Shown here: one piece after another, positions 3,938-39,954 of the stretch
Position numbering within the stretch: the first letter of the stretch is position 1
Layout of the letters: every line of letters starts with the position of its first letter
NCBI GenBank assembly: GCA_015488295.1
Contig: WFOC01000084.1
Location: 1 to 56,684 of the forward strand
Reading direction: 5' to 3'
DNA length: 56,684 nucleotides
DNA from: Gammaproteobacteria bacterium
GTDB lineage: Bacteria > Pseudomonadota > Gammaproteobacteria > SZUA-229
The notes under the pieces: model-generated
The model's database searches: none
What the model saw: the letters and a program-made list of their open reading frames with translations, nothing else
What the model was told of the DNA's origin: nothing
Position numbers and translations under genes: made by a program

Positions 3938-3944
3938 CAAACCA

Positions 3945-6241: not shown

Positions 6242-6245
6242 AATT

Positions 6246-13669: not shown

Positions 13670-13770
13670 TGACATATAAGCCCGGGCAATTCAATATCAT
13701 CGACACCTGAACCTTTTTGACGCAGGTGTAAAAACTCTTCAAAAAGCAATAACAAACGAGGCAGTTATTG

Positions 13771-16110: not shown

Positions 16111-16121
16111 CAGGTTAAAAC

Positions 16122-16613: not shown

Positions 16614-16623
16614 GCGCACAATC

Positions 16624-17208
16624 ATGAACATGGCCGAACTAAACAAACAGGTATTACAGATAACCACGGAAGACCGCGCACTGATTAAAGCCGTGCAGCG
16701 TGGCCTGCCCATCTGCAGCCGGCCTTACGCCGAAATCGCAAAGCAGCTGGATACCACCGAGCAGGATGTCATCTCGCGCCTGCAACTGCTGATGGATAAA
16801 GGTGCCATCAAACGTTACGGCGTGGTGGTGCGCCACAAAGAGCTGGGCTACACCGCCAACGGCATGGTGGTGTGGGATATTCCCGATGACAAGGTCGACG
16901 AAATCGGCATATGCATCGGCAAATATTCCAGCGTCACCCTCAGCTATCGCCGCCCTCGCCGCCTGCCCGAATGGTCGTACAACCTGTTCACCATGATCCA
17001 CGGCAGCAGCCGTGAAGAAGTCAAACAAAAGGTCGAAGAGATCGTCGCCAGCTGCGGCCTGCAGGATGTCAAACACACCATTCTGTTCAGCACACGACGC
17101 TTTAAACAGCGTGGCGCAAGTTATTCTGCCGAACAGGCCCCCGCTAAAAAAGCCGCCAAATTACACCTGATAAAAAACACCGGCAAACAGAAAACACCGG
17201 CAAACTAA
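16624..17208 (+). CDS. nirL: Sirohaem decarboxylase subunit, NirL-type
   Basis: Paralogous to NirD-type proteins (SYRRPRRLPEWSYNLFTMIHG). Has a basic C-terminal tail. Confidence 0.8.
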   Translation: MNMAELNKQVLQITTEDRALIKAVQRGLPICSRPYAEIAKQLDTTEQDVISRLQLLMDKGAIKRYGVVVRHKELGYTANGMVVWDIPDDKVDEIGICIGKYSSVTLSYRRPRRLPEWSYNLFTMIHGSSREEVKQKVEEIVASCGLQDVKHTILFSTRRFKQRGASYSAEQAPAKKAAKLHLIKNTGKQKTPAN

Positions 17209-17212
17209 GTCG

Positions 17213-18229: not shown

Positions 18230-18246
18230 CAAGCAGAAAAAATACT

Positions 18247-20423: not shown

Positions 20424-20936
20424 CTAGATAAGAATGAATCCCTGCAAGGGGTCGAACTCAATCAACAGGATGTGTGCAGGCTCGATACTCAATTCCCGTT
20501 CAAACACATAATCAAAGCCCGGGTTTCTTACACTGTCATCCATTCTGATTTCCAGCCGGTGTTTGCCGGCAGAGATTTTTTTACTGAAATAAATATCCAC
20601 GCTACCATCGTTAAACAAGCCCGGCGGTTGCATGGTTTCACTGTAAACCAGCTCGCCATCCAGCCTGGCTTCGACTGTAATCGGTGAGCGTTCACGCGGA
20701 CAGTCTTCCGGTTTGCGCATGTTTGGCGGCAGCTTCATCAACTCCTGCTGGCTGAGTTTGCGGCACGGCTCACGAAGCTCGCCGGCATGTGCGAAGGCAA
20801 TGGTGAGCAGACTCTCGTTTTCACCGATAAGACGCACTGATGGCGATGTTGAAAAATACCAGATCAACGCCATGAATACGGTGTAATTAATGACCTGTAA
20901 CAGGTAACGTACCGGTTTGCTGTTCAGCGCGCTCAT
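20424..20936 (-). CDS. N-terminally TM-anchored 170-aa protein, unknown function, translationally coupled to the upstream fusion gene
   Basis: ATGA start/stop overlap at 20936. One TM helix followed by a soluble domain. Confidence 0.6.
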   Translation of the reverse strand: MSALNSKPVRYLLQVINYTVFMALIWYFSTSPSVRLIGENESLLTIAFAHAGELREPCRKLSQQELMKLPPNMRKPEDCPRERSPITVEARLDGELVYSETMQPPGLFNDGSVDIYFSKKISAGKHRLEIRMDDSVRNPGFDYVFERELSIEPAHILLIEFDPLQGFILI

Positions 20937-22495
20937 CAGCTGTTACCTCCCGCACCATCATTTTCAGCAGCCGTAGCTTCGGCCTGTTTTAATTTCGCCA
21001 GCTCGGCCCTGAATTCATCCAGGTCTCTTTCAACTTCATTTTTATCGGTTTCAGCTGCGCCATGCACGCGAATGCGATTTCGGTCAGCACGACCACGAAG
21101 AATGGGTTTACGCTCGCCGGCAAAACGTGCTTTCACCCAGCGGTTACCGAAACGGTAATAACAATCATTGTGTCGACAGCCGGTGACCATAACGCCATCA
21201 GCGCCATTTTTTAAGGCATATTCAACCAGCGTTGGCGGCAACATGCCGCTGCAGATAAGTCGAACGCCTTTGGTTTCATCATCTTCCAGACGACTCACAT
21301 TCAGGCCATGCTCACAGCCGTAAACCAGTATTTTTGTTTCACCGCTTAGCGCCGCTATCGCTTCCCTGGTCTGGGAACGCATTTTATCGACCGGCAACTG
21401 CGGCATGTCGATACCGGTTTTCAGTTCTTCATTACGCGAGCGGAACGGGTTGGAAGACGGGCAGGAACCCGCACAGATTCCGCAGGCCGCACACAGTTCG
21501 GGATTAACCACCACTTCTTTGTCGAACTTCATGCCGTCGGTACGCGCCTGCACGGTAATGGCATCAAACGGACAGTCATCAAAACACAGTTCGCAACCAT
21601 TACAATGTGCAAGATCAACCACCGCTTTGGGACCGTCTTTTTTCGGCGGCAACCACGGCAACATCATCAACAGCCAGGTAATACCGAGGGTAAAGATCCA
21701 CACCTGACCTTCTGTCCAGATGTCGAGCAAGGGATAGATGTTGAGATAAAACCAGTCAAGATGAATGACTTCAGGCATTTTAGTAAGGTCGGCCGGAGCA
21801 TGACTTAATGCAGGTTTATACAGCGATAGTGCAAGCAGGGCCAGCAAGGTGCCAACAGCAAGTCCACGGGGTGGATTGATTTTTACATCGGACAAACGTT
21901 TTACGTGCAGCCACAACATGAACGCCAGCACCAGCGGCTGACCGAGCAGGTGCAGAAATTCGATGAGAATGAAAAAACGGTCGGTCATCTCACCCGCAAC
22001 AAAATTACGCGTCATTGCGCCCGGCAGCAACGGCAAGGCATCCACCAAACGTGCGGAACCGATAGCAATATACTGCGCCATCTCATCCCACACCAGCCAG
22101 TAACCGGTGATACCCAGGGTAACGACAACCCAGAGATTCGGCACCCCGGTCACCCATGAAAACCAGCGGAAACCACGATAACGACCAGAGGCAAATTCCT
22201 TGAACATGTGCAGCAGAATTGTCACCACCACCGCATCCGAGGCATAGCGATGCAGGCTGCGCATAACGCCGCCAGCGTACCACTGCTGATGGGTAATATA
22301 TTCTACCGAGGCATGCGCACCATCAATGCTGCCGTGGAAAGGAATGAACAGGTAAATGCCGGTGATCAAAATCACCCAGAACAGAAAAAAGGATAAAGTA
22401 CCAAGATGGTATAAAGGATTCCATTCCGTGCCAAACGAAATATTGAACCAGGATTCCAGAGCCAGATAGACTCGTTTAACAGGATTGACTAGCAC
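20936..22495 (-). CDS. Fusion protein: dihaem cytochrome b (b/b6 N-terminal type) + 2x[4Fe-4S] ferredoxin + MvhD/FlpD-like domain
   Basis: RSLHRYASD...LLHMFKEF and FLHLLGQ...WLHVKR (four His in two helices). CNGCELCFDDCP and CAACGICAGSCP. C-terminal ILVYGCEHG...LICSGMLPP...VTGCRHNDCYY. GTG start with agga 10 nt upstream. Confidence 0.8.
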   Translation of the reverse strand: MLVNPVKRVYLALESWFNISFGTEWNPLYHLGTLSFFLFWVILITGIYLFIPFHGSIDGAHASVEYITHQQWYAGGVMRSLHRYASDAVVVTILLHMFKEFASGRYRGFRWFSWVTGVPNLWVVVTLGITGYWLVWDEMAQYIAIGSARLVDALPLLPGAMTRNFVAGEMTDRFFILIEFLHLLGQPLVLAFMLWLHVKRLSDVKINPPRGLAVGTLLALLALSLYKPALSHAPADLTKMPEVIHLDWFYLNIYPLLDIWTEGQVWIFTLGITWLLMMLPWLPPKKDGPKAVVDLAHCNGCELCFDDCPFDAITVQARTDGMKFDKEVVVNPELCAACGICAGSCPSSNPFRSRNEELKTGIDMPQLPVDKMRSQTREAIAALSGETKILVYGCEHGLNVSRLEDDETKGVRLICSGMLPPTLVEYALKNGADGVMVTGCRHNDCYYRFGNRWVKARFAGERKPILRGRADRNRIRVHGAAETDKNEVERDLDEFRAELAKLKQAEATAAENDGAGGNS

Positions 22496-22557
22496 GAATA
22501 TTAATTCCTAAAAATAGACGGGGTCGAAATGTTATCACGGTTTGCTAATAAACCAAT

Positions 22558-22571
22558 TTGACTCATATCAA
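22558..22571. promoter_or_regulatory. FNR/DNR-type box TTGACtcatATCAA upstream of the cytochrome b fusion gene
   Basis: Its centre is about 70 nt upstream of the GTG at 22495 (minus strand). Confidence 0.6.
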
Positions 22572-22703
22572 AGCCGGTTAAATAATGAATACGATGCCTG
22601 TATAGCAGTGCTTTTCAGGCTATCGAAAACTGCTTAAGCATGCAAAAACACACACCTTTATCTATGTCCCTGCACTCTGTGATGAATCATTTTTTATCAC
22701 TCG

Positions 22704-23537
22704 TTAGGCGGGTTTTTTACCCTTGTGCAACTCACGCCGCATAAACCAGATAATCGAAAAGATCACTGTAAAGCCAACAAACATTCCTACAAATAATGAG
22801 TAATCAAAATAGTAAGCTCCGGTATGCGGATCGTATGTAGTGCAGAACAGTTTGATTTTGTTGCCCAGACTGGACAGGAAAGTCTGTTCAGGTTGCGGCC
22901 GTCCCAGCACCAGTTCCAGTAATGGATCAACCAGCAACGGGGTCTCGAACACCTGACCGTAAACCTGCCGGTAAACCTTGCTGTCAGCATCAATAACCGT
23001 GGCCTGTATCAAATGATCAAAACCGCTTGATGTCGGGTAATACAAAAAACCCAGTTCTTCCGTCAGTGAGGCAAGGTTTTCTTCATCAATGCTTAACAGG
23101 TGCCAGCCTTTATCGCTGATGCCCTGCATGTTTGCGAAATACTGCATCGCCTCCGGGGTATCAACACGGGTATCAAAACCGATAACAGCGACCGAGAAAC
23201 TATCCTCGCCCAGAGCATCACGCGCTTTTTCTACCACCTTCGAAAGATGCCGGGTCGTCATCGGACAGATCTGATAACAGCTGGTAAAAACCATGCTGAT
23301 AACCAGCGGCTTACCACGAAAATCGCTCAGTGATACCTGCTTGCCTTCTGCATTTGTAAAAACATGATCACCCAGTTTTTTACCGATGGCTGACTGACTG
23401 GTCCTGAGTGCGACATCATAGTCAAATTTCGGCTTGTCCTCGACCACAGGTTTTTTAGTCGACACAAAAGTCACGCCAACCGCGTGCAGGGGAATCAAAA
23501 GCAGCAGAAAGCTGCCGATTAGAAGGCTCAATCGCAT
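22704..23537 (-). CDS. SCO1/SenC-family copper chaperone (thioredoxin fold), copy 1
   Basis: FTSCYQICP (CxxxC) motif, N-terminal signal/anchor, extra C-terminal TM helix. Confidence 0.85.
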   Translation of the reverse strand: MRLSLLIGSFLLLLIPLHAVGVTFVSTKKPVVEDKPKFDYDVALRTSQSAIGKKLGDHVFTNAEGKQVSLSDFRGKPLVISMVFTSCYQICPMTTRHLSKVVEKARDALGEDSFSVAVIGFDTRVDTPEAMQYFANMQGISDKGWHLLSIDEENLASLTEELGFLYYPTSSGFDHLIQATVIDADSKVYRQVYGQVFETPLLVDPLLELVLGRPQPEQTFLSSLGNKIKLFCTTYDPHTGAYYFDYSLFVGMFVGFTVIFSIIWFMRRELHKGKKPA

Positions 23538-23588
23538 AACGTGCCCAGTCTACCCTACTGACTCAGCAAACTATATGTTAGCTTACGG

Positions 23589-24452
23589 CTAACCCAATAA
23601 AAAAACGTCAAGTACCGCACCGATTAATAAACAGACCAGTTGCACCAGCGAAGCGAAGAAACTTTTCATCGCCACTTTTGGTGTTGGCTGTTGAATCATC
23701 CGGTAATTTTGGTAAATAAAATAACCGCCACCACTTACCGCGCCGGCAAGGTATAACCAGCTCAGACCGTAGAAAAACGGCAGTATCGATACACCAACCA
23801 GGATAAGGGTGTTACCCAGAACCACAACGGCTGTACGTTTATCACCGATTATCACCGGCAACATCGGCACACCTGCTTTGGCATAATCCTGATGCTTGGC
23901 AATGGCCAGGCTCCAGAAATGCGAAGGTGTCCAGAAAAACAGCACCAGTGCCAGCAGAATTGGAATCGGACTCAGATCCGGATCAACCGCTGCTGCACCT
24001 GCGAGCACAGCAAAGCTGCCCGAAGCGCCGCCAATCACAATATTCATCCAGGTACGGCGTTTTAATAGAACCGTATAAATGATGGCATAAAAGAATGCCC
24101 CCAGAAAAATATAAAGTGCCGCTGCATTATTTAAAAATAACGCCGCAGAACCTACACCGGCTCCCAACAATGCCAGGATAAACACTATCCACAGTGGATT
24201 TTTTCGGAAGCTGCCGGTAACAAAAGGACGGTCTTCTGTCCGTTTCATCACACTGTCAAGATCAACTTCAAAGTACTGATTAAAGGCTCCGGCACTGCCT
24301 GCTGATATCAGCACGGCAAAACACAGAACCAATATCTGTACACCACTGAGTGCCTCTCCCGGTGTTACCACCATGGCAACCAGTGCAGTCAGCATCATAA
24401 TGACACCGATACGCAATTTTAATAGATTGGTTAATTGCTTAAATATATCCAT
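23589..24452 (-). CDS. ctaB: Protohaem IX farnesyltransferase (haem O synthase)
   Basis: UbiA-family pattern and the FFWTPSHFWSLAI motif. Confidence 0.9.
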   Translation of the reverse strand: MDIFKQLTNLLKLRIGVIMMLTALVAMVVTPGEALSGVQILVLCFAVLISAGSAGAFNQYFEVDLDSVMKRTEDRPFVTGSFRKNPLWIVFILALLGAGVGSAALFLNNAAALYIFLGAFFYAIIYTVLLKRRTWMNIVIGGASGSFAVLAGAAAVDPDLSPIPILLALVLFFWTPSHFWSLAIAKHQDYAKAGVPMLPVIIGDKRTAVVVLGNTLILVGVSILPFFYGLSWLYLAGAVSGGGYFIYQNYRMIQQPTPKVAMKSFFASLVQLVCLLIGAVLDVFLLG

Positions 24453-24480
24453 CGAAATATTCAGGTTCGTTGGTTAGCGA

Positions 24481-24521
24481 AAAAAAACGTGGGACAGAGC
24501 GCTGTCCCTCCCACGTTTTTT
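24481..24521 (-). terminator. Hairpin plus U-run immediately after HCO subunit I (terminator or attenuator before ctaB)
   Basis: aaaaaacgtgggacag...ctgtccctcccacgtttttt. On the minus strand the stem is followed by ttttttt. Confidence 0.6.
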
Positions 24522-24537
24522 ACATTCTGACATCGTA

Positions 24538-26271
24538 CTAGCTAATATGCCAGACGGATGCCAGGTAGTCCCAGTTGATGAAGTAATACACCACGAAACA
24601 TACCAGCAGTGCCATCGCAAGAACAAACGTTCCCGGTGCCTCAAAGCCACCATCACCATGTTCTTCCACCGGCTGTTTAGGAGCCATCAGCAGACGCTCA
24701 GGCTGTTCAACGTTGTAAACACCTGCAGCCAGTGGCGCACCAAAGCTCTGCAGCAGACCGGCAGACTCTTCCAGCTTCTTACCAAACAGTAAAGAGCCAA
24801 CAGTTACGATCAGATACATCGCACCGCCAACAACGCCGAGTACACCACCAATCGCACCAACGGCCATCATCATGTAAGCCGTACCAGGGTACTCAAAGCT
24901 TAACATTGCGCCGGTGAAGTCCATGTCCCAGTGACGACGTGATACACCCAGTGTACCCGCACCCAGCATGAACAGAACCATCAGTGTCATACCGCCACCG
25001 AAAACGTAAGGCTGCCATTTAGCCATGGTAGGCAGGAACAGTGCACGTCTGAACAGCAGCGGGATCAACAGATAAGTCAATGCCATGAAGGTCAGTGTGG
25101 TACCGGTTACTACTGTGGCATGGAAATGCGCAGGTACATAAATGGTGTTATGAATGATCAGGTTAATCTGCTCGGTACCCATAACAACACCGGTGATACC
25201 GCCGATGAAGCCAAAGGTGAACAGCGAGATGAAGAAGCCCGAGAATACCGGATTCCCCCACGGTGCCTTACGCAACCATTCGAACAGGCCCTTGGTCAGC
25301 CCTTTTCCGCGCTGCGCAACTTCCATCGCCCCCGGAATGGTCAAACCGTGAATCATACTGGCCAGTACCGCAAGATACATCGCGTAACTGGTGTTGAATA
25401 CTTTCCACTCAGAGCTTACGCCCGGATCAACCAGAATGTGGTGAGCACTGGCTAACTGCAGGAAGAAGATATACAGCAGGAAGGCTGCACGACTTACTTT
25501 CTCTGACATTGGACGAGCGCCAAACAAAACACCGACGATCAGATACCAGACAGCTACGTGTGCGGCAACATTAATCTGCTGCGAAGAGTGACCCAGACCC
25601 CACCAGATTATGCGATACATGGCGGAATCAATATGGTTAATGTAGCCGATAGACCAGAGGAATGTCGGCACCAGGATGATGGCACCACAGGCAATGGTGA
25701 AAACAGCGATAATGGCTGCAGTCAGGGCACCAAAGGTAACCAGTGGAATCGAGCCTTCGTAGGTATTATCCTCCTTGGCGATAACCAGCGTGCCAAAGAA
25801 AACAAACACCGCGATGAGCGCCCCCACCGCAAACAGAATAAGCCCCAGATAGAAATGAGGCTCGGCCTGCATCGGCACATAGGATGTCATCATCACGCTC
25901 GAGTTACCCTGGAATACGGCGACATTGTTCATCACCGCACCGACGAGCATCAGCGCAAAGCCGGTCCATGCCCAGCCCGGTGCCGCCAGTCGCGTGCGCA
26001 ACAGGGTCGAGGAAGCGAAATACAGAATCGCCATTTCAAAGAAGATGATCCAGAAGATCAGTGCGTTAATACCATGTGCCGTCAGCACTTGATAGAACAT
26101 ATCTGCAGGCAGCAGATGTACTTCCTGCCAGCGCGTCAGAACAACACCCAACGCCATAATACCTGCGACCAGTAATGCCACTGCGCCAGCAACAGCATTC
26201 GCCTTCATCAGGCTTTCTGCAGATTTGTCAAAATAGAAGCCCGTGTCCGGGCAAATTCTGAATTGTGCCAT
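24538..26271 (-). CDS. Haem-copper oxidase superfamily subunit I, B-family-like but lacking the cross-link Tyr
   Basis: IWWGLGHSSQQ aligns to ba3-type FWWTGHPIVY. AHH lies 49/50 residues later, followed by AHFHATV. Confidence 0.9.
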   Translation of the reverse strand: MAQFRICPDTGFYFDKSAESLMKANAVAGAVALLVAGIMALGVVLTRWQEVHLLPADMFYQVLTAHGINALIFWIIFFEMAILYFASSTLLRTRLAAPGWAWTGFALMLVGAVMNNVAVFQGNSSVMMTSYVPMQAEPHFYLGLILFAVGALIAVFVFFGTLVIAKEDNTYEGSIPLVTFGALTAAIIAVFTIACGAIILVPTFLWSIGYINHIDSAMYRIIWWGLGHSSQQINVAAHVAVWYLIVGVLFGARPMSEKVSRAAFLLYIFFLQLASAHHILVDPGVSSEWKVFNTSYAMYLAVLASMIHGLTIPGAMEVAQRGKGLTKGLFEWLRKAPWGNPVFSGFFISLFTFGFIGGITGVVMGTEQINLIIHNTIYVPAHFHATVVTGTTLTFMALTYLLIPLLFRRALFLPTMAKWQPYVFGGGMTLMVLFMLGAGTLGVSRRHWDMDFTGAMLSFEYPGTAYMMMAVGAIGGVLGVVGGAMYLIVTVGSLLFGKKLEESAGLLQSFGAPLAAGVYNVEQPERLLMAPKQPVEEHGDGGFEAPGTFVLAMALLVCFVVYYFINWDYLASVWHIS

Positions 26272-26272
26272 T

Positions 26273-26812
26273 TTATTTCTCCGTCACAATGATTTTGCCA
26301 AGCATGGTATGGTGGCCAATGCCGCAATATTCGTTACATACAATTGCATAATCGCCCGCCTTGTCAGGGGTCATATTAAAGACCATTTCATAGCCTGGCA
26401 GAACCTGCAGATTAATATTTACCGGCTGCAGAGAAAAACCGTGCTGCCAGTCCATTGAGGTGAGGTGTATACGATACGACTGACCGGATTCAAGCTCAAG
26501 AATTGGATACCACTGCCACAGCCTACCCAGAAGATAAACATCGCTGCCAGCAGGTGGTCGAACAATTGGAATACCAGCTTCTTCGCCGACCTGGTATTTT
26601 TCAACCATGGCATCAACTTCTACCTGAAATTTTGCAGGTGTTGTTTGATAAGCTTCGTTAGAAAGATTTTGTTTTCCATAAATATGCCAGTAAGGCATCA
26701 TAAAAAACATAATTAAACACCAGACCAGTGCGATACCAATCCACACTATCTCCTGTTTACCAACTGGTACGTTCCACCAGATTCGATCCGAAGGGGGTAA
26801 AAATGAAGTCAT
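26273..26812 (-). CDS. HCO subunit II, single-TM cupredoxin with a CuA site
   Basis: WQHGF ... CNEYCGIGHHTM (the H..C.E.C...H..M CuA pattern). One nucleotide separates it from the subunit I start. Confidence 0.85.
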   Translation of the reverse strand: MTSFLPPSDRIWWNVPVGKQEIVWIGIALVWCLIMFFMMPYWHIYGKQNLSNEAYQTTPAKFQVEVDAMVEKYQVGEEAGIPIVRPPAGSDVYLLGRLWQWYPILELESGQSYRIHLTSMDWQHGFSLQPVNINLQVLPGYEMVFNMTPDKAGDYAIVCNEYCGIGHHTMLGKIIVTEK

Positions 26813-26826
26813 TGATATTCTCCTTT

Positions 26827-26988
26827 CTATTCAGCAACGGGGATAGTAGCAACTTCCATAATTCCCCACAAAATGTAGAAAACCGTAGGCATGACTACAC
26901 CAATAAACAGTAACAGGAATGGATTATCAAGCATCCGCTGAAAGAAAGGGATTCTTTCCGTCTTTGGGATATTATCTTCTTGGGACAT
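26827..26988 (-). CDS. Untracked 53-aa single-TM ORF heading the HCO operon (possible small subunit)
   Basis: My translation: MSQEDNIPKTERIPFFQRMLDNPFLLLFIGVVMPTVFYILWGIMEVATIPVAE. A strong aaggag lies 7-8 nt upstream. It falls below the ORF-track length cut-off. Confidence 0.55.
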   Translation of the reverse strand: MSQEDNIPKTERIPFFQRMLDNPFLLLFIGVVMPTVFYILWGIMEVATIPVAE

Positions 26989-27152: not shown

Positions 27153-27166
27153 TTGACTTATATCAA
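27153..27166. promoter_or_regulatory. FNR/DNR-type box TTGACttatATCAA in the divergent HCO / hemerythrin intergenic region
   Basis: About 170 nt upstream of the 53-aa ORF start (minus strand) and about 300 nt upstream of the hemerythrin gene (plus strand). Confidence 0.6.
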
Positions 27167-27456
27167 AAGCCTTTCATCTACTTTAAAAATAACATAAAAA
27201 CAATTGAACTATTTCCTGTGCAAAACAAACCATAGACCCAAACTCCCCGGTTCATGACCTGCATCATGGATAACTATGCCCATAAAGAATAATCTGCATC
27301 TCTGCTGAACATATTTTCCACGAATAACCATACCCAGTTAATGGAAAAAATGCCAGCATATAAATTAAAAACCATTACAATATAACGGTTTTTCACGATG
27401 AATCATAAAATCGTACCAAACAAACAAAGTAACGACTTAAATACAGGAGCCTGTTG

Positions 27457-27933
27457 ATGGCATTAATTGAGTGGCGTAAAGAATTTTGCACGGGCGTTGC
27501 AAGCGTTGATTACGAGCATGAAGAACTCATTAACGAGATCAATGAAATCTATACACTGATTGATGACAACGCCGATAAAGAAAATGTCATCGACAAACTC
27601 GGTGATATTTACGGCAGCATCTCGGCACATTTTGCTCTGGAAGAGCAGATGATGGAAAAGCACGATTACGAACATTTCAAGGAACATCAAGCAGACCACG
27701 AACGTCTGCTGGACGAGATTCAGGAGATTACTGAAGAGTTCGAATCAGCCTCCGGGCTGGACACCGACAAGTTCAAACAAAAACTGAACGACTGGTTTCA
27801 GCTGCATTTCAGCACACACGATGCACGTCTGCACAGACTGGCACACCTGATAGACCACGCACCAGTATGCGAATCAACCATGAAATCCATGATACAAAGC
27901 GCGAAAAATGCCCTGCTACGCAGAACAGGTTGA
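27457..27933 (+). CDS. Soluble hemerythrin-like (bacteriohemerythrin) protein
   Basis: IEWRKEFCTGVASVDYEHEELINEINEIY ... HFALEEQMM ... HQADHERLL ... HFSTHD. Confidence 0.8.
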   Translation: MALIEWRKEFCTGVASVDYEHEELINEINEIYTLIDDNADKENVIDKLGDIYGSISAHFALEEQMMEKHDYEHFKEHQADHERLLDEIQEITEEFESASGLDTDKFKQKLNDWFQLHFSTHDARLHRLAHLIDHAPVCESTMKSMIQSAKNALLRRTG

Positions 27934-27989: not shown

Positions 27990-29048
27990 TTGCAGGAAAC
28001 ACTTTTGTTTAATCCATCTGTCACCGCTAACAAAAACAACAAAGCCATTGCCATCTGGCTACTGATCTGCTGCGCGACTATTTTCGGCATGATTATTCTG
28101 GGCGGCATCACCCGATTAACCGGCTCCGGCCTGTCCATGGTGGAATGGGCACCGATCATGGGCATTCTGCCACCGCTTAATGACCAGGAGTGGCAGCAAG
28201 CCTTTCTGCTCTACCAGCAGTTTCCTGAATACCAGATAAAAAATTTCCACATGTCGGTGCATGATTTCAAATCCATCTTCTGGTTTGAATACGGTCACCG
28301 CCTGCTCGGCCGCTCCATCGGCATCATCTTCCTGCTGCCTTTCCTGTTCTTTCTGTTCAAGGGAAAAATCGAAAAAACACTGACACCAAAACTGATCACC
28401 ATGTTTGTGCTCGGCGGTCTGCAGGGCCTGATGGGCTGGTACATGGTCAAGAGCGGCCTGGTCAACGACCCACGTGTCAGCCAGTATCGTTTAACCGCAC
28501 ACCTCGGCCTGGCCGTGGTGATCTACGCCTATATGCTCTGGGTTGCACTTGTCCTGCTGTATCCAAAAATAAATGAAACCGCGCAGGATTCTGTGCGAAA
28601 ACTTGGCAAGCAGTCGCTGTTCATCACCGGCCTCATTATCATCACCATTCTCAGCGGCGGTTTTGTCGCCGGCACCCACGCAGGTTTTGCCTTCAACACC
28701 TTCCCATTGATGCACGGAAAATTAATTCCCGACGGCCTGTTTGAACTAACGCCACTATGGAAAAACTTTTTTGAAAATATTGTCACCGTACAGTTTGACC
28801 ACCGGGTACTGGCAACATTATTATTTATCGTCATTCCGCTTTTCTGGTTCAAAGCCAGGAAGCTGACATTACATCCGCTGGCCCGCACAGGGTGTCACCT
28901 GTTGCTTGCCGCACTGCTATTACAGATTACGCTTGGTATCAGCACCCTGCTGCTGGTAGTGCCTGTTGCCCTCGGCGCAGCACATCAGGCAGGAGCCATT
29001 GTGCTACTGACCGCAGCATTGTTTGTTAACCAGCAATTACATCGCTAA
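27990..29048 (+). CDS. ctaA: Haem A synthase (COX15/CtaA family)
   Basis: 8-TM-like with EYGHRLLGR, QFDHRVLA and AAHQAGA motifs. TTG start; the exact start is uncertain. Confidence 0.85.
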   Translation: MQETLLFNPSVTANKNNKAIAIWLLICCATIFGMIILGGITRLTGSGLSMVEWAPIMGILPPLNDQEWQQAFLLYQQFPEYQIKNFHMSVHDFKSIFWFEYGHRLLGRSIGIIFLLPFLFFLFKGKIEKTLTPKLITMFVLGGLQGLMGWYMVKSGLVNDPRVSQYRLTAHLGLAVVIYAYMLWVALVLLYPKINETAQDSVRKLGKQSLFITGLIIITILSGGFVAGTHAGFAFNTFPLMHGKLIPDGLFELTPLWKNFFENIVTVQFDHRVLATLLFIVIPLFWFKARKLTLHPLARTGCHLLLAALLLQITLGISTLLLVVPVALGAAHQAGAIVLLTAALFVNQQLHR

Positions 29049-29096: not shown

Positions 29097-29612
29097 ATGA
29101 AAAATTCTCTAAGAAAACCTGTTCTGGCCGCTTTTCTGGCAGTGCTAACCATATTACCCGGCAGCGTTTTTGCACTACAGGCCTCCGACAACACCAGCAT
29201 CTTCGAGGGCTATTATGCCCGTGTCGGTAACAACGGCAGTCCATCAAGAACACTGCACCACAACGTCTACATGAAACTATATGCCAGGGACGGAAAACAG
29301 TGGGTCGCACTTTTGCACATCCCGCTGCCTTACGCTTCCACCATTGATGAAGATGCCGTGATTCCGAAAATTTTTGAAAAGATAGGCAAGCAGTTGCACT
29401 CCAGCTCATTTGTTCGCGATACCTTTGGTTATCTCGATGAAAAAGCCACAGTGCAATTCGAACATTTCGGTTATATGCAGGATAAAATTATTTTCGAATG
29501 CGGCTCACTGTCGCCCTGCACCATCATGCCGGCAGACGGTTACCTGGAGCTGGTAAAACCGGGAATGATTAACGAGCACATCATCAAATACGATCACATC
29601 GTTAACAAATAA
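29097..29612 (+). CDS. Exported 171-aa protein, unknown function
   Basis: Signal peptide MKNSLRKPVLAAFLAVLTILPGSVFA. No recognisable motif. Confidence 0.55.
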   Translation: MKNSLRKPVLAAFLAVLTILPGSVFALQASDNTSIFEGYYARVGNNGSPSRTLHHNVYMKLYARDGKQWVALLHIPLPYASTIDEDAVIPKIFEKIGKQLHSSSFVRDTFGYLDEKATVQFEHFGYMQDKIIFECGSLSPCTIMPADGYLELVKPGMINEHIIKYDHIVNK

Positions 29613-29645: not shown

Positions 29646-30287
29646 ATGACCAGCAAAAAATTACCGATAGGCACGATTGTTATATTCAGTTTTTTTCTGC
29701 TGACAATGGCAGCGGCTTATTTTCTGACCAAGCCACCCGAGCGACCGCCTGAACTTGAAGGCATCATGCGCCCCGACTTCCGCCTGCTGCACCCGTTCAA
29801 ACTCACTGACCAGAACAATCAGGTTTTCGACGAAAAAAGATTACTGGATAAGTGGAGCTTCGTATTTTTTGGTTACACTTCCTGCCCCGACGTATGCCCG
29901 GCAACGCTTTATGTGCTGAGTTCCATTCATGGTTTATTGACCGATGAAAATGGCAAGGCACCCGACGACATGCAGGTGGTCTTTATCTCAGTCGACCCGG
30001 CGCGTGACACCCCGGAAAAACTCGCCAACTACGTCAGCTATTTCAACAGGGATTTTATTGGCGTGACTGCAGATAAAGAAGAAATCGACAAACTGAGTCG
30101 ACAGTTTGGTGCCGGCTATATCCTCGAAGATAAAAAGGCAGACGGTAGCTATAACGTGGCGCACACCAGTGCGATCTTTTTGATTGATCCCTACGGTCGA
30201 CTGGTTGCCACTTTTTCACAGCCGCACCAGGCACCGACCATTACTTCACAGTATAAAAAAATACGGAAATATTTTTCCTGGGATTAA
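29646..30287 (+). CDS. SCO1/SenC-family copper chaperone, copy 2
   Basis: GYTSCPDVCP motif, N-terminal anchor, ...HTSAIFLIDP. Confidence 0.85.
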   Translation: MTSKKLPIGTIVIFSFFLLTMAAAYFLTKPPERPPELEGIMRPDFRLLHPFKLTDQNNQVFDEKRLLDKWSFVFFGYTSCPDVCPATLYVLSSIHGLLTDENGKAPDDMQVVFISVDPARDTPEKLANYVSYFNRDFIGVTADKEEIDKLSRQFGAGYILEDKKADGSYNVAHTSAIFLIDPYGRLVATFSQPHQAPTITSQYKKIRKYFSWD

Positions 30288-30535
30288 GTATCAGAAGCAG
30301 AGTCTGAGTTAGTATTTTTTCGCTTGTCCACTTTTTTCCAGGCACCAACAGCCCAGATAAAATAAGACAGTATCATCACAATATTGATGATGCCACCAAC
30401 CACATAAAAGTTGATGGTGAGATCTTTGACCTCGGCCTCGGGTGCCGACACTGGCTGCTCTGTGTAGGTGACTTGCGATTGATTCGTTGCTGATTCTTTC
30501 ATAGTTGATAGAAAAACTTTTAAAAAGTTGGCCAC
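30284..30535 (-). CDS. Possible small single-TM protein
   Basis: 83-aa ORF with one hydrophobic segment (FYVVGGIINIVMILSYFIWAVGAW). No clear RBS. Confidence 0.35.
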   Translation of the reverse strand: MANFLKVFLSTMKESATNQSQVTYTEQPVSAPEAEVKDLTINFYVVGGIINIVMILSYFIWAVGAWKKVDKRKNTNSDSASDT

Positions 30536-30587: not shown

Positions 30588-30601
30588 ATGACACAGGTCA
30601 T
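30588..30601. promoter_or_regulatory. Degenerate FNR/DNR-like palindrome aTGACacagGTCAt
   Basis: Perfect dyad TGAC-N4-GTCA about 125 nt upstream of the 30722 ATG. A weaker consensus match than the other boxes. Confidence 0.35.
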
Positions 30602-30721
30602 TATAACCAGTAAATTAGAAGATGCATTCAGCTATGAATGGCTTTAAAATGCCGCCAGTAAAATAACTTTACCGGCCCACTATTTCAACTTACCAATTGA
30701 ATTCCCTGACGACATAAAATT

Positions 30722-32098
30722 ATGCTGCCTAACCAATTCGCCATGCTGACCCAGCAGTTCACCCTGCCCGTACCCGATGAATCGGCCAAACGAATGTCTG
30801 CTGGCTGGCTGCTTCTCAGCCTCTCTGCACTGGTCATCGGCGGCCTGTTCACCATTCTGGTGGTGCTTTCGCGCACCCCTTTTTTTCAGGAAATCATACC
30901 CTGGGTTGATTTTTTTCACACCGCGCTGGTCGTGCATGTCGACCTCACCGTACTGGTCTGGTTTGTCGCTTTTTCCGGCGTTTTATGGAGTTACAACAGC
31001 GCCGGAAAATGCCTGCGCTGCGGATGGCTTGCACTGTTTCTGGCCTGCGCCGGTACGCTGATCATCAGCATCTCGCCATTTACCGGCGAGAGTCACCCTC
31101 TGATGAGCAACTATGTTCCGGTCTTGCAAAGCAACACTTTCTTCACTGGTCTGGGACTGTTCGGACTCGGCTTTGCCCTGCTGGTGCTGCGCATGCTGAT
31201 GACCACACTGGCAGAAAAAAACAACAGCGGCGGTGACGTTTTACGCTTCGGCATGTTTATTGCTGTGGTCGCCTCTTTCTTTGCGCTTGCCGCACTGGCG
31301 ATGTCTTACCTTGGCCTGGATAAAAACTTTACCGGCGAAGCCTATTACGACCGCCTGTTCTGGGGCAGTGGCCACATCCTGCAGTTCAACCACACCCAGC
31401 TAATGCTGGTCGCCTGGCTATGGCTGGCCACCGTCAGCGGTGCCTATTTGCGACTGACACCACGCGTGGTACTGATTTTATTTATTCTCGGGCTATCACC
31501 GGTATTGATGGTACCGCTTATTTATATTCTGTTTGATGTCAGCTCCGGCGACCACATGCTCTGGTTTATGCTGATGATGAAATATGGTGGCGCACTGGCC
31601 GCTGTCCCCATCGGTCTGGCAACCACACTGGCTATTTTCGAAAGATGGAAACCAACCCCCGGCTTTGAAATTGAACGCAGCGCACTGATATTTTCCATTC
31701 TGCTGTTCGGTGTTGGCGGCATCATCGGTTTTATGATCAGCGGCAGTGACGTGCGGGTAACCGCGCACTACCACGGCTCCATCGTCGGCGTAACCCTGGC
31801 ATTCATGGGCATGACCTATCACCTGCTGCCGCATCTGGGGTTTCGAAAAATCACCAGCCGCGCCGCCCGCTGGCAACCGGGCATCTACGGCACCGGTCAG
31901 CTGATGCACATCATCGGACTGGCCTGGTCAGGCGGCTATGGCGTACAGCGAAAAACCGCCGGCGCGGATCAGGGACTGGAACAGATCGAACAAATCGCCG
32001 GCATGGGCCTGATGGGACTGGGCGGTTTAATTTCCATCATCGGCGGCATTATTTTTCTGGTGGTAGTTTACAAGGCGATCCGACCGGAAAAAGATTAA
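30722..32098 (+). CDS. Orphan compact haem-copper-oxidase-superfamily-like membrane protein with an altered CuB site
   Basis: FWGSGHILQF (Phe where the cross-link Tyr sits), SSGDHMLWF (Asp-His where His-His is expected), VTAHYHGS (HxH of helix X), upstream FFHTALVVHVD. Confidence 0.6.
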   Translation: MLPNQFAMLTQQFTLPVPDESAKRMSAGWLLLSLSALVIGGLFTILVVLSRTPFFQEIIPWVDFFHTALVVHVDLTVLVWFVAFSGVLWSYNSAGKCLRCGWLALFLACAGTLIISISPFTGESHPLMSNYVPVLQSNTFFTGLGLFGLGFALLVLRMLMTTLAEKNNSGGDVLRFGMFIAVVASFFALAALAMSYLGLDKNFTGEAYYDRLFWGSGHILQFNHTQLMLVAWLWLATVSGAYLRLTPRVVLILFILGLSPVLMVPLIYILFDVSSGDHMLWFMLMMKYGGALAAVPIGLATTLAIFERWKPTPGFEIERSALIFSILLFGVGGIIGFMISGSDVRVTAHYHGSIVGVTLAFMGMTYHLLPHLGFRKITSRAARWQPGIYGTGQLMHIIGLAWSGGYGVQRKTAGADQGLEQIEQIAGMGLMGLGGLISIIGGIIFLVVVYKAIRPEKD

Positions 32099-32125: not shown

Positions 32126-33268
32126 GTGATATTAAACCTCAAATACATCTATGGCATTATCTTCATCAGCTTGTCCGCATGGGTTGTCTACGCCTATGTC
32201 ACAACCACTGAGATTATTCAAAGCCAGAAAAATTACGCGCATATCATCAATATCAGCGGTAAGCAGCGCATGCTGTCTCAAAAGACAACGCTTATCGCAA
32301 AACGCTATTACGAAACCGGCGACCCCGAACTAAAAAAACACCTCATCGAACTGTACTGGTTGATGAAAAAAGACCATCAGGAAATCGTTAACACACATCT
32401 GGTCTCGGAAGACATTAAAGCGGTTTATCGTCAGTCACCCGACAACCTCAATGAAAAAGTTGAAAGCTATCTGGAATTGCTTGCCGATTTCATTGAGAAC
32501 AAAGACCCTGAAATACTGAAGCAGATCGAAAAAGCCTCGTTTGAACTTTTGCCGCAAATAAACAAAACCGTTTATATGTTCGAAAACGAAAGCAACAAAA
32601 AAACACAGGCTCTGATGGACCGGGAGTTTTTTATACTGGTTGGCACACTGCTAACGCTGATCATTGAAGCCGCAATCATCGTTATCCCCGCCATCAGAAT
32701 TGCCTCACGTAAAGACTCTGAACTACGCCGCCTGATCGAGGAACGCACTTACGAACTGGAAAAGCTTTCTGTCACCGACCAGCTAACCAAACTCTATAAC
32801 CGGCGCAAGATCGACGACATACTGGCCACTGAAGTAGAACAGGCCAGACGCTACAATAATTCATTCAGCCTGATTCTTATCGACATCGATCACTTTAAAA
32901 AAGTCAACGACCGTTACGGACATCTGGTGGGTGACCGGATTTTACAGGCACTATCAAGACTGTTTTCTTCCAACATACGCAAGACCGATATAGTTGGCCG
33001 CTGGGGTGGAGAGGAGTTTCTGATTATCAGCATGGAAAAAGACATTACAAAAGTTTTAATCTTTGTTGAAAAACTTCGCACCCTGGTCGACGAACACCAT
33101 TTCAAAACTGTCGGCAATATAACCTGCAGCTTCGGCGTTTCTCACTTCAAGCAGGGCGACAGTATCGACACCTTGCTTCAACGCGCCGATGTTGCTCTGT
33201 ACGAAGCAAAAAAAGCCGGCAGAAACTGCGTAAAAATCGAAAAGAGCAAACACCTGTTTCCAGTTTGA
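32126..33268 (+). CDS. Diguanylate cyclase (GGDEF) with a periplasmic PilJ/NarX-P-box-like sensor region
   Basis: NISGKQRMLSQKT between two TM segments. RWGGEEFLI active-site motif. GTG start. Confidence 0.85.
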   Translation: MILNLKYIYGIIFISLSAWVVYAYVTTTEIIQSQKNYAHIINISGKQRMLSQKTTLIAKRYYETGDPELKKHLIELYWLMKKDHQEIVNTHLVSEDIKAVYRQSPDNLNEKVESYLELLADFIENKDPEILKQIEKASFELLPQINKTVYMFENESNKKTQALMDREFFILVGTLLTLIIEAAIIVIPAIRIASRKDSELRRLIEERTYELEKLSVTDQLTKLYNRRKIDDILATEVEQARRYNNSFSLILIDIDHFKKVNDRYGHLVGDRILQALSRLFSSNIRKTDIVGRWGGEEFLIISMEKDITKVLIFVEKLRTLVDEHHFKTVGNITCSFGVSHFKQGDSIDTLLQRADVALYEAKKAGRNCVKIEKSKHLFPV

Positions 33269-36981: not shown

Positions 36982-37962
36982 TTACTGGCACTTCCCGGCT
37001 TTAACTTTTTCAGGCTTTCGCTCGACCAGCGGCTGCTGCAACATATCCTTGCCCTGCTGCAATAAAAAGTCCAGAAAAGTACGCGACACCAGCGACAGCT
37101 TCTTGCCCTCCAGATGCACCGCATACCAGCGGTAAAACAAGGGAAAACCCTTCACATCCAGCACCGCAATTTGCTTGTGCTCCAGCTCCAGACGCAGATT
37201 ATGCCGCGACAAAACCGAAATACCCAGCCCGGCCATTACCGCCTGCTTGATCGCCTCACTGCTGCCCAGCTCCATATAAGGATTAATGGTCAACCCCTGC
37301 TCAAGGAACAAACGGTGAATCGCCTGCCGCGTGCCGGAACCTGCCTCACGTACCAGAAACCGTTCTTCATGCAACTGCTGCAGTGTAATATCCGAACATT
37401 TTGTCAACGGGTGATTCACGTTGGCCACCACCACCAGCTCATTATCAACAAAGTGCTGCGCCACCACATCCAGCTCTTCCGGCACCTGCCCCATGATCAG
37501 CAGATCATCCTCATTGGACTTCAGGCGTTCCAGCACGCGCGAACGATTGGTGACTTTCAGTATCGGCTGCACTTCCGGGTATTGTGCGATAAAAGCACCC
37601 AGCAGGTGCGGCATAAAATACTTGGCCGTGGTAATCACCGCGATGCGCAGCGGGCCTTTTACGACCGTACCCAGCTCGGTAGTAACCTCGCCCAGCGCCA
37701 CCATGCGCTCAAGTATATCCTGCGCAGCAGCATAAACTTCTGCACCGGCAACAGTCGGATGCACGCGGCGGCCAACCTGCTCCAGCAAGGGATGACCAAT
37801 AGCCTCATTCAGTTTTTTAATCTGCATGGAAATGGTAGGCTGGGTAAGGTGTAACTCTTCTGCAGCGCGGGTATAGCCGCCGAGGCGCACCACCGCTTCA
37901 AAGATTTGCATCTGGCGTAAAGTTACGTGGCGAATAAGGTTTTCAGCTGTTGCATAAATCAT
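36982..37962 (-). CDS. cbbR: LysR-family regulator divergent from cbbL (CbbR)
   Basis: N-terminal HTH (YTRAAEELHLTQPTISMQIKKLNE) and divergent arrangement with cbbLS. Confidence 0.85.
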   Translation of the reverse strand: MIYATAENLIRHVTLRQMQIFEAVVRLGGYTRAAEELHLTQPTISMQIKKLNEAIGHPLLEQVGRRVHPTVAGAEVYAAAQDILERMVALGEVTTELGTVVKGPLRIAVITTAKYFMPHLLGAFIAQYPEVQPILKVTNRSRVLERLKSNEDDLLIMGQVPEELDVVAQHFVDNELVVVANVNHPLTKCSDITLQQLHEERFLVREAGSGTRQAIHRLFLEQGLTINPYMELGSSEAIKQAVMAGLGISVLSRHNLRLELEHKQIAVLDVKGFPLFYRWYAVHLEGKKLSLVSRTFLDFLLQQGKDMLQQPLVERKPEKVKAGKCQ

Positions 37963-37982: not shown

Positions 37983-38085
37983 AATAGAAACTATTGATTT
38001 TTATTTATACCGGGGTTTTAGCATAATGTCCACCACGCGGTTACCACCGCGCCATAACTCATTTATTGAATCACTGGAGAACACA

Positions 38086-39504
38086 ATGGCTAAAACCTAT
38101 GACGCGGGTGTAAAAGAATACCGCGAAACTTATTGGCGCCCAGATTATACCCCGAAAGATACGGATATTCTGGCCTGTTTCAAAATCACCCCTCAGGATG
38201 GTGTACCTCGTGAAGAAGTTGCTGCTGCGGTAGCTGCAGAATCATCAACTGGTACCTGGACCACAGTATGGACCGACCTGCTGACTGATCTTGATTACTA
38301 CAAGGGCGTTGCTTATGCAATGGAAGACGTACCAGGCGACGACACATGCTTCTACGCATTTATCGCCTACCCAATTGACCTGTTTGAAGAAGGTTCAGTT
38401 GTAAACGTTATGACTTCACTTGTTGGTAACGTATTCGGCTTTAAAGCTCTGCGTGCACTGCGTTTAGAAGACATCCGTTTCCCGATCGCCTACGTTATGA
38501 CATGTAATGGTCCACCACAGGGTATCACTTTAGAGCGTGACATCCTGAACAAATACGGTCGTCCAATGCTGGGTTGTACTATTAAGCCTAAACTGGGTCT
38601 GTCTGCGAAGAACTACGGTCGTGCATGTTACGAAGGTCTGCGCGGCGGTCTTGACTTCACTAAAGATGACGAGAACGTAAACTCACAGCCATTCATGCGC
38701 TGGCGCGCTCGTTTCGACTTCGTAATGGAAGCGATTCTGAAAGCTGAAGCTGAAACTGGTGAGCGTAAAGGTCACTACCTGAACGTTACTGCACCGACTG
38801 CTGATGAAATGATGCGTCGTGCTGAATACGCCAAAGAAATCGGCGCTCCTATCATCATGCATGACTACCTGACTGGTGGCTGGTCTGCTAACACACAGCT
38901 GGCTCAATGGTGTCAGGAAAACGGCATGTTGTTACACATTCACCGCGCTATGCACGCGGTAATGGATCGCAACCCGCACCACGGTATCCACTTCCGTGTA
39001 CTAACCAAGATTCTGCGTCTGTCTGGTGGTGATCACCTGCACTCCGGTACTGTTGTAGGTAAGCTGGAAGGCGACCGCGAAGCAACTCTGGGCTGGATCG
39101 ACATCATGCGTGATTCATACGTTAAAGAAGATCGCTCACGCGGCATCTTCTTCGACCAGGACTGGGGCGCTATGCCTGGCCTGTTCCCTGTTGCTTCTGG
39201 TGGTATCCACGTATGGCACATGCCAGCACTGGTTAACATCTTTGGTGACGACTCAGTACTGCAGTTTGGTGGCGGTACATTAGGTCACCCCTGGGGCAAC
39301 GCCGCAGGTGCAGCAGCCAACCGTGTAGCAGTTGAAGCTTGTGTAGAAGCTCGCAACATGGGTCGTGAACTTGAGAAAGAAGGTAAAGACATCCTGACAG
39401 CGGCTGCGAAACACAGCCCAGAGCTGAACGCAGCGATGGAAACCTGGAAAGAAATCAAGTTTGAGTTCGACACTGTTGACAAACTTGACGTTTCTCACAA
39501 GTAA
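38086..39504 (+). CDS. cbbL: RuBisCO large subunit, form IA
   Basis: [17 protein letters not shown]..., [25 protein letters not shown]. The ATG at 38086 is preceded by ggaga. The ORF-track start at 38026 is rejected. Confidence 0.97.
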
Positions 39505-39606: not shown

Positions 39607-39954
39607 ATGCAAGATTATGAATCAAGTTTGAGCGATGCCTCAAGCCGTAAATTTGAAACTTTTTCATATTTACCACCGATGACACCTGAGCAGACTCGTC
39701 AGCAGATCGAGTACATCGTCAGCAAAGGCTGGAACCCGGGTATCGAACACACTGAACCAGAAAATGCCAATGGTCACTACTGGTACATGTGGAAACTGCC
39801 TATGTTTGGTGAAACTGACGTGGACGCTATTTTGAAAGAAGTAGAAGCGTGTCACGCAGCACACCCTGACAACCACGTTCGTCTGTTAGGTTTTGATAAC
39901 TTTGCCCAGTCTGCTGGTGCATCTATGGTTATCTACCGCGGCAAGACTGTTTAA
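39607..39954 (+). CDS. cbbS: RuBisCO small subunit
   Basis: 115 aa. [11 protein letters not shown]...[11 protein letters not shown]. Confidence 0.95.

Follow-up and report, generated by a model that had tools for sequence, protein, structure and literature searches.

The 56,684-nucleotide contig WFOC01000084.1 of a Gammaproteobacteria bacterium (GTDB lineage SZUA-229; assembly GCA_015488295.1), referred to below as the window, encodes a protein of 458 amino acids (aa) which is very probably a true member of the haem-copper oxidase (HCO) superfamily with the subunit I fold, and an accessory paralogue of the catalytic subunit I. As judged from alignments, two haem sites and one distal His have been retained in this protein, which is devoid of a canonical CuB/FeB site. 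The gene family to which it belongs has already been noticed and named, the protein being a further member of a widespread family of accessory proteins of eNOR gene clusters, and a role as a helper in haem handling is more likely than that of an enzyme of a new type. The gene in question is the following:

30722..32098, plus strand: gene of the HCO subunit I paralogue (458 aa, ATG start), recognised by Pfam COX1, profile alignments, the AlphaFold2 (AF2) model, Foldseek and orthologue conservation.

The deduced protein scores 58.9 bits against the Pfam COX1 profile (PF00115; cut-off 34.8), covering profile positions 6-427 of 436. The AF2 model, built from a 77-sequence family alignment (A1), contains 12 transmembrane (TM) helices, with a pLDDT of 93.6 and a pTM of 0.94, and the Foldseek search with this model returned HCO subunit I structures exclusively (ba3, aa3 and cbb3; TM-scores 0.66-0.76), the top match being subunit I of T. 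thermophilus ba3 oxidase with TM-scores of 0.69-0.76. The A1 family profile matches the same ba3 subunit with E=3e-16. Moreover, the hhalign comparison of A1 with a profile (A2) made from 15 copies of the 577-aa eNOR-type subunit I encoded near the HCO-like gene yielded a probability of 99.94% and E=2.7e-36 over 441 columns, at 25% identity. The family profile was required for such matches to appear: a phmmer search of PDB sequences with the single protein gave no match, and NCBIfam contains no model for it. An earlier reading of this DNA, made from the letters only and called here the sequence-only reading, had proposed an HCO-like protein, and the COX1 score above the cut-off, the 12-helix model and the ba3 structure as top match bear this out, upholding the HCO fold against an assignment to some transporter family outside the superfamily.

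An exhaustive HMMER scan revealed 1,469 representatives of 50% clusters homologous to the 458-aa protein at E<=1e-3, 597 of them below 1e-30, with lengths mostly of 430-470 aa. The nearest database protein is 99% identical, and more than 6,798 clusters at the 90% level match, so that the gene can be taken as genuine and subject to selection. Since many positions are invariant across this family of more than 1,000 50% clusters, the idea that the protein is a decaying pseudo-enzyme was ruled out.

The open reading frame (ORF) and its four motifs were correctly described in the sequence-only reading: FFHTALVVH occupies residues 64-72 (H66, H72), FWGSGHILQF residues 213-222 (H218, F222), GDHMLWF residues 276-282 (D277, H278) and VTAHYH residues 346-351 (H349, H351). 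The spacings it gave are likewise those of the sequence, with 59/60 residues from H218 to D277/H278 and 71 residues from H278 to H349. The ligands were mapped by means of the A1-ba3 and A1-A2 profile alignments, both of which agree on the following correspondences:

Low-spin haem ligand: H72 in this protein, H72 in ba3, H66 in the neighbouring 577-aa subunit I.
Helix-VI CuB-type His: H218 in this protein, H233 in ba3, H228 in the neighbouring 577-aa subunit I.
High-spin haem ligand: H349 in this protein, H384 in ba3, H382 in the neighbouring 577-aa subunit I.
Low-spin haem ligand: H351 in this protein, H386 in ba3, H384 in the neighbouring 577-aa subunit I.
Haem propionates: R410-K411 in this protein, R449-R450 in ba3, R445-R446 in the neighbouring 577-aa subunit I.

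Conservation was assessed in 78 orthologues from GTDB genomes, which are 48-88% identical to the 458-aa protein. Residues H72, H218, Q221, H349, H351, R410 and K411 are each found in all 78, and the invariant ligand core does not vary across the wide family either. Both the bis-His pair of a predicted low-spin haem (helices II and X) and the proximal His of a predicted high-spin haem (helix X) are present according to the alignments. The candidate ligands for two haems put forward earlier thus stand in the case of H72, H349 and H351, whereas H66, a position at which His, Arg and Lys all occur in the family, is not conserved and has to be dropped. The GH in the helix-VI position was also rightly recognised, as was Phe in place of the cross-link Tyr: F222, four residues after H218, is Phe in 77 of the 78 orthologues and lies opposite the diagnostic Gln of eNOR. 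An alternative register of the A1-ba3 alignment, in which a one-residue gap brings the invariant Q221 opposite Y237, was discarded in favour of the ungapped one, the latter being backed by the eNOR profile alignment. Hence, the cross-linked active-site Tyr typical of the O2-reductase families A, B and C is missing, and H218 is the sole survivor of the three CuB/FeB histidines.

The position of the helix-VII His-His pair is another matter. The sequence-only reading had assigned it to GDHMLWF; the profile alignments (ba3, E=3e-16; eNOR-type subunit I, E=2.7e-36) place the pair (H282-H283 of ba3, H277-H278 of the neighbouring subunit I) opposite I267-Y268. The distance from H218 to I267/Y268 is 49/50 residues, which is the canonical spacing, and the anomalous 59/60 residues noted before are thereby explained. 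In the AF2 model TM7 spans residues 247-270 and TM8 residues 276-307, with D277-H278 located at the first turn of TM8, 10 residues past the His-His position. Because D277-H278 aligns with the 'E-W' of the loop motif DPGVSSEWKVFNTSY (SSEWK) in the neighbouring eNOR-type subunit I, it is, on alignment grounds, a variant of an inherited TM7-TM8 loop motif, the real metal ligands of the neighbour being the His-His pair ten residues earlier.

Of the 78 orthologues, all have a hydrophobic residue at position 267 and 75 have Tyr at position 268. At position 277, by contrast with the constancy expected of the Asp-His pair in the sequence-only reading, Glu (37), Asp (14), Gly (11), Asn (4), Ala (3), Ser (3) and other residues occur, so that it is acidic in 51 of 78 and Asp in only 14; position 278 is occupied by His (60), Tyr (10), Ser (4), Asn (3) or Phe (1). 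The combination (D/E)H is found in just 40 of the 78. In the Gallionella/Ferrigenium group the two residues read DY, NY, SY or GY, even relatives more than 70% identical to the protein have D, Y, H or N at position 277, and across the wide family D-H was encountered in 3 of 77 sequences. Since the pair lies off the His-His position and is poorly conserved, the suggested gNOR-like site, with two His and one carboxylate holding a non-haem iron, is contradicted, and so is membership of gNOR.

Besides Y268, polar residues in TM7 and TM8 are limited to S259, K287, Y288, T301 and T302. With the helix-VII ligands and the Tyr lost and these two helices nearly nonpolar, the protein would be unable to bind CuB or FeB as canonical members do, and it would possess no K-type proton path; its turning over O2 or NO as its relatives do seems, on this basis, unlikely.

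Comparison with characterised and predicted relatives leads to the same picture of a reduced subunit I. Subunit I of the B-family ba3 oxidase of T. thermophilus (PDB 1EHK, 1XME, 3S8F) is the best match both by sequence profile and by structure and shares the 12-helix core; the 458-aa protein, however, has I267-Y268 for H282-H283 and F222 for Y237, is some 100 residues shorter and is not accompanied by a CuA subunit II. No recognised cupredoxin gene is paired with the HCO-like gene. The closest profile relative is the eNOR subunit I, represented by the 577-aa neighbour in the window and by the eNOR of Rhodothermus marinus (PMC11214002). The two have in common the helix-VI GHxxQ and the TM7-TM8 loop S-x-E-aromatic-(K/R)-x-F-x-T, but the eNOR subunit retains all three metal-binding His together with Gln at the Tyr position (Q232), whereas its paralogue has one His and Phe (F222) in place of the Gln that marks the catalytic subunit. 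A Gln where the cross-link Tyr would stand has been published as the diagnostic feature of eNOR (PMC8756737, Table A4), and the neighbouring subunit I carries it within GH228SSQQ232. This neighbouring oxidase had also been considered as sNOR (norSY-senC-orf1) of ammonia oxidisers, an identification that was replaced by eNOR on the strength of the Gln signature and of the synteny with Ferrigenium. gNOR is a predicted nitric oxide reductase (NOR) family in which Asp replaces an active-site His and subunit II is a cupredoxin without CuA (PMC11214002). Like gNOR, the 458-aa protein is a B-family-derived HCO relative departing from the six-His rule. In gNOR, though, the Asp is described as standing at a canonical ligand position, with retention of the remaining ligands and with a cupredoxin subunit II lacking CuA; in the 458-aa protein both helix-VII His are absent, two ligand positions are hydrophobic or Tyr, and the Asp, located at a different place, shows no conservation.

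The genes surrounding the HCO-like gene in the window are these:

20424..20936, minus strand: 170-aa protein combining a beta-rich domain with a TM anchor at its N-terminus; in most genomes its gene directly precedes the HCO-like gene.
20936..22495, minus strand: 519-aa fusion of cytochrome b, two [4Fe-4S] and an FlpD/MvhD-like domain, kept in 57 of 80 loci.
22704..23537, minus strand: SCO1-like protein.
23589..24452, minus strand: haem O synthase CtaB (UbiA family).
24538..26271, minus strand: eNOR-type subunit I, 577 aa, with H66, GH228SSQQ232, H277-H278, H382/H384 and R445-R446.
26273..26812, minus strand: eNOR-type subunit II, a cupredoxin with the CuA motif C159-x3-C163-x3-H167-x2-M170.
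26827..26988, minus strand: 53-aa single-TM protein, conserved first gene of the eNOR-type operon.
27454..27933, plus strand: bacteriohemerythrin, directly before the HCO-like gene in several related loci.
27990..29048, plus strand: haem A synthase CtaA/COX15.
29097..29612, plus strand: exported 171-aa protein of unknown family between ctaA and SCO1, with homologues in 11 related loci.
29646..30287, plus strand: SCO1/SenC copper chaperone.
30284..30535, minus strand: small conserved single-TM ORF, antisense between SCO1 and the HCO-like gene, with homologues beside SCO1 in related loci.
32126..33268, plus strand: diguanylate cyclase with PilJ-type sensor and GGDEF domains, downstream of the HCO-like gene and not a conserved neighbour elsewhere.

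The SCO1, exported protein, ctaA and GGDEF neighbours are as given in the sequence-only reading, which nevertheless took the HCO-like gene for an orphan. This it is not: a complete eNOR-type operon, with its CuA subunit II (26273-26812), is situated 3.9 kb away on the other strand, and elsewhere it is the usual operon partner. The locus survey comprised 80 loci from species-representative genomes, of which at least 598 matched. The usual gene order is 53-aa TM protein, subunit II (CuA), subunit I, ctaB, SCO1-like gene, the fusion of cytochrome b, two [4Fe-4S] and FlpD/MvhD, 170-aa TM protein, in some cases hemerythrin, and then the HCO-like gene. An eNOR-type subunit I is present in 42 of the 54 loci having at least 6.5 kb of upstream sequence, the 170-aa gene immediately precedes the HCO-like gene in 46 of 77 loci, and a gene of the ctaA, ctaB or SCO1 type is found near it in 60 of 80. 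In the window and its closest relatives (loci L001-L009) this operon has been divided in two. Its part from the 53-aa to the 170-aa protein occupies the minus strand of the window (20424-26988), 3.9 kb from the HCO-like gene, which stands on the divergent arm after hemerythrin, ctaA, the unknown gene and SCO1; ctaA does not occur in every one of the L001-L009 loci.

Several of the small proteins encoded here deserve a brief description. The 170-aa protein has the invariant residues P32, H50, C58, C79, R81, R83, G106, G124 and F161 along with a nearly invariant H126, and could be a metallochaperone or a partner subunit; neither Pfam nor PDB provided a match to it, and its single-sequence structure model was poor (pLDDT 58). 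It shows no real similarity to the exported 171-aa protein, the BLASTP match between them (E=0.004) being confined to the N-terminal hydrophobic segment. The 53-aa protein, found as the first gene of the eNOR operon in 36 of 81 loci, may be a small subunit. The stop codon of the small ORF at 30284-30535 overlaps that of SCO1. Homologues of this ORF were detected in 15 and 13 related loci, mostly beside SCO1, and as they share the strand of SCO1 in loci L018, L035 and L043, the ORF appears to be inverted in the window. In some Gallionella/Ferrigenium loci the gene of the cytochrome b-FeS-FlpD/MvhD fusion is duplicated, and its products are called bc1-chain-C-like in a preprint (bioRxiv 10.64898/2026.01.22.701106).

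The same 2026 preprint labels the orthologue of Ferrigenium straubiae (IMG 2878407321) an 'eNOR scaffold protein' of unknown function. In its supplementary information this protein is listed as a 'hypothetical protein' with KEGG K02274 (COX subunit I), encoded after a hypothetical gene and detected in the proteome, where the eNOR and cytochrome b-like proteins of Ferrigenium were detected as well (bioRxiv 10.64898/2026.01.22.701106). The family of the 458-aa protein displays the same context, namely a COX1-like gene following ctaB, sco1 and the cytochrome b-FeS and hypothetical genes. In the Ca. Ferrigenium bremense locus (L078) the operon order is that of the preprint, and the orthologue is about 52-53% identical to the 458-aa protein over residues 13-454. 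The F. straubiae protein agrees with ours in being COX1-like (K02274) and in occupying the same operon slot (eNOR II, eNOR I, haem O synthase, sco1, cytochrome b-FeS, hypothetical gene, then the gene itself). It differs in that the window gene has left the operon and stands on the divergent arm, and the Ferrigenium group has Tyr at position 278 where the window protein has His. As regards this protein, the preprint (bioRxiv 10.64898/2026.01.22.701106) supplies the name only, and neither sequence analysis nor functional data on the family were found in the literature searched. Since the HCO classifier of Sousa et al. took only sequences bearing the conserved His residues, the family was presumably excluded from it. 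Annotation pipelines name its members 'cbb3-type cytochrome c oxidase subunit I' or 'cytochrome c oxidase subunit 1'.

Family members located away from any eNOR genes are found beside ctaA (L052, L090) or ctaB (L058, L064, L071), and in L045 after an 823-aa ORF. Among the representatives of 50% clusters, domain fusions were also encountered. The 748-aa protein P0246 (L082, 2629-4875) joins the HCO-like domain to a C-terminal UbiA/CtaB haem O synthase and is encoded after a pair of subunit II and subunit I genes; the 761-aa protein P0122 (L083, 2-2287) has an N-terminal cytochrome b domain followed by the HCO-like domain; and in several representatives the HCO-like domain carries C-terminal TPR repeats resembling CcmH/CycH. 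The TPR-fused members have a 13th TM helix, so their TPR domain is predicted to be periplasmic, as in CcmI/CycH. Three of them, examined singly, are all encoded directly after CcsA, two with ResB upstream.

A metagenome scan seeded with this sister clade (A5) provided 80 loci (L093-L172). CcsA ends within 400 nt upstream on the same strand in 59 of the 62 loci with enough upstream sequence, and ResB lies upstream in 53 of 55. The operon of the sister clade consists of an approximately 790-aa multihaem cytochrome c, ResB, CcsA, the HCO-like gene with or without TPR, in some cases a second CcsA, and, downstream of the HCO-like gene, a thioredoxin-like protein and a TPR protein of the CcmH/CycH type. 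The invariant core (helix-II His, W..GH..Q, HYH and RK) is kept in this clade. In the literature searched, no description was found of an HCO-fold protein in an operon for System II cytochrome c maturation.

Gene context and fusions suggest for the 458-aa protein a role in the supply or assembly of cofactors, with one or more haems bound within the membrane. The haem made by CtaB and CtaA, possibly the unusual haem A-type cofactor of eNOR, would be taken up or held by this protein, which would serve as a scaffold or chaperone during the maturation of eNOR subunit I, with SCO1 and other operon proteins acting beside it. In the sister clade, an analogous job would be done for c-type cytochromes with ResB and CcsA. 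Because genes of cofactor biogenesis turn up repeatedly as its partners, and do so in two independent clades, the holding or passing of haem as an assembly function in eNOR maturation is regarded as the most likely role, albeit tentatively, its chances coming close to one half. A little below this is to be placed the broader proposal that the HCO fold, after the loss of CuB/FeB, was recycled as a membrane haem-holding scaffold, one clade maturing eNOR with CtaB, CtaA and SCO1, and the sister clade, often with a periplasmic TPR domain, being an unrecognised component of the ResB/CcsA system (System II) for multihaem cytochromes.

There are well-known systems built on similar principles: NifEN is a paralogue of the nitrogenase NifDK, Surf1/Shy1 acts in haem a insertion, and CcmI/CycH is a TPR apocytochrome chaperone. 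By analogy, the 458-aa protein would follow the same logic of a catalytic-subunit paralogue or a membrane chaperone encoded together with the enzyme and the genes for cofactor synthesis, and its TPR-fused relatives have a CcmI-like topology. To our knowledge, the 458-aa protein bears no sequence relationship to NifEN, Surf1/Shy1 or CcmI/CycH, and the analogy is a functional one.

Several points weigh against an assembly role. The word 'scaffold' in the preprint is a label, and the role is deduced through guilt by association. That neither the two haem sites nor the propionate pair vary suits stable redox cofactors at least as well as a transient carrier, and electron transfer is hinted at by the cytochrome b fusion in P0122 and by the operon-encoded cytochrome b-FeS-MvhD protein. 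Some family members are found in unrelated housekeeping contexts (L091/L092). Finally, a non-canonical metal site may exist around H218, Q221, Y268 and H349.

The alternative that survives best, even if it is rather unlikely, is that of a permanent redox subunit or electron-transfer module, in which the two haems relay electrons between the quinol pool, or the cytochrome b-[4Fe-4S]-MvhD protein, and eNOR, the partner in the sister clade being the multihaem cytochrome c. Invariance of both haem sites and of the propionate R-K pair is compatible with this, as are the presence of the cytochrome b-FeS-FlpD gene at the same locus in 57 of 80 cases, the joining of a cytochrome b domain to the HCO-like domain in P0122, and the occurrence of the Ferrigenium protein in the proteome together with eNOR and cytochrome b-like proteins. 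However, of the 150 representatives listed, just one shows the cytochrome b fusion, and the neighbours that recur across clades are biogenesis genes (ctaA, ctaB, SCO1, ResB, CcsA, thioredoxin-like, CcmH-like TPR) rather than redox partners. In the window and in L001-L009, moreover, the HCO-like gene has moved away from the cytochrome b-FeS gene.

A membrane haem-based sensor of gas (NO or O2) or redox state, signalling to neighbouring regulators such as the GGDEF protein of the window or the Crp/FNR-family protein of L001, seems quite improbable. The GGDEF sensor gene is indeed the next one downstream in the window, a Crp/FNR-family gene is next in the Thiotrichales metagenome-assembled genome (MAG), and an open distal pocket free of metal could conceivably bind diatomic gases. 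Yet these regulators are not conserved neighbours, GGDEF being found in 3 and Crp/FNR in 8 of 81 loci at varying distance; the conserved neighbours are the biogenesis genes, and the 458-aa protein has no output domain. More improbable still is a metal-less haem pocket with a chemistry of its own, for instance NO-dependent O2 release feeding hemerythrin and the O2-requiring CtaA under anoxia, for which there is no positive support. Hardly credible either, and practically to be dismissed, is a stand-alone compact gNOR-like reductase of NO (or O2) in which H218, D277 and H278 bind non-haem iron beside the high-spin haem: the HCO fold, the intact high-spin haem ligand, the helix-VI His, the (D/E)H at positions 277/278 of 40 of the 78 orthologues and the Asp described for one active-site His of gNOR (PMC11214002) would all fit, but the pair lies off the His-His position, matches the eNOR 'E-W' and varies even among relatives more than 70% identical (with DY, NY, SY and GY in the Gallionella/Ferrigenium group), no recognised cupredoxin subunit II is paired with it, TM7 and TM8 are almost without polar residues, and the window already encodes a cNOR-like cluster and an eNOR-type operon.

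Two elements in the vicinity of these genes were considered with regard to regulation:

30588..30601, unstranded: dyad ATGACacagGTCAT, overlapping the first hexamer of a sigma-70-like promoter match at 30588-30616.
27153..27166, unstranded: FNR/Dnr-type box TTGACTTATATCAA, located where the promoter regions of the eNOR operon and of the hemerythrin gene diverge.

The dyad was correctly located by the sequence-only reading, its centre lying about 127 nt before the ATG of the HCO-like gene. The core of ATGACACAGGTCAT, TGAC-N4-GTCA, occurs 3 times in the window as compared to 0.93 expected, a number reached in 3 of 100 shuffles. The dyad is kept in the closest relative L002 only, within a block that is itself conserved with L002 only, and it is absent upstream of the HCO-like gene in the seven syntenic loci L001 and L004-L009. 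Hence it may be a regulatory site, but the case is weak. Its interpretation as an FNR/CRP-type site was rejected, given the four mismatches to TTGAT-N4-ATCAA and the conservation in L002 only. FNR-type boxes with a single mismatch to this consensus are located at 27153-27166, 22558-22571, 13656-13669 and 1310-1323, and when up to two mismatches are allowed, the window yields 56 matches where 35 +/- 6.5 would be expected. The better boxes are found upstream of the eNOR operon and other denitrification genes, not of the HCO-like gene.

The remainder of the window contains further genes of respiratory interest. A cNOR-like cluster at 1853-8099 (plus strand) comprises a third COX1-family ORF (1853-3256; Pfam COX1, E=1e-76), an AAA protein of the CbbQ/NirQ/NorQ type (4245-5081) and a NorD-like VWA protein (6246-8099), with the FNR-type box TTGATATTGGTCAA at 1310-1323. 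With the eNOR operon, this makes two different NOR-type systems in the window, besides the paralogue lacking the metal site. A block resembling haem d1 biosynthesis, at 13768-19494 (plus strand), includes a tetrapyrrole methylase (13768-14580), a cytochrome D1 haem-domain protein (14881-16110), three NirD/L-like proteins (16122-18229) and a radical SAM/SPASM protein (18247-19494), and is preceded by the FNR-type box TTGACCTAAATCAA at 13656-13669. Form I RuBisCO is represented by the large subunit at 38026-39504 (Pfam RuBisCO_large) and a probable small subunit at 39607-39954; the divergent ORF at 36982-37962 was judged to be of LysR type from its translation alone. The RuBisCO genes and the closest relatives (MAGs of Thiotrichales, Arenicellales and Gammaproteobacteria) point to an autotrophic, denitrifying gammaproteobacterium.

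The interest of these results lies in the role of the family and in its link to System II maturation, not in a new catalytic metal site. eNOR has been reported as a common and possibly energy-conserving NO reductase, hence a source of N2O (PMC11214002). Being so widespread, with at least 598 species-representative genomes, and travelling with eNOR in most of the sampled loci, the paralogue is an obvious candidate for an assembly factor and a useful genomic marker. The names currently given to the family by annotation pipelines inflate the counts of terminal oxidases in MAG-based metabolic reconstructions. If the link of the sister clade with ResB and CcsA is functional, System II cytochrome c biogenesis would gain a further component, and if the scaffold reading should prove true for both clades, it would provide respiratory haem enzymes with a NifEN-like case of a paralogue serving as an assembly platform.

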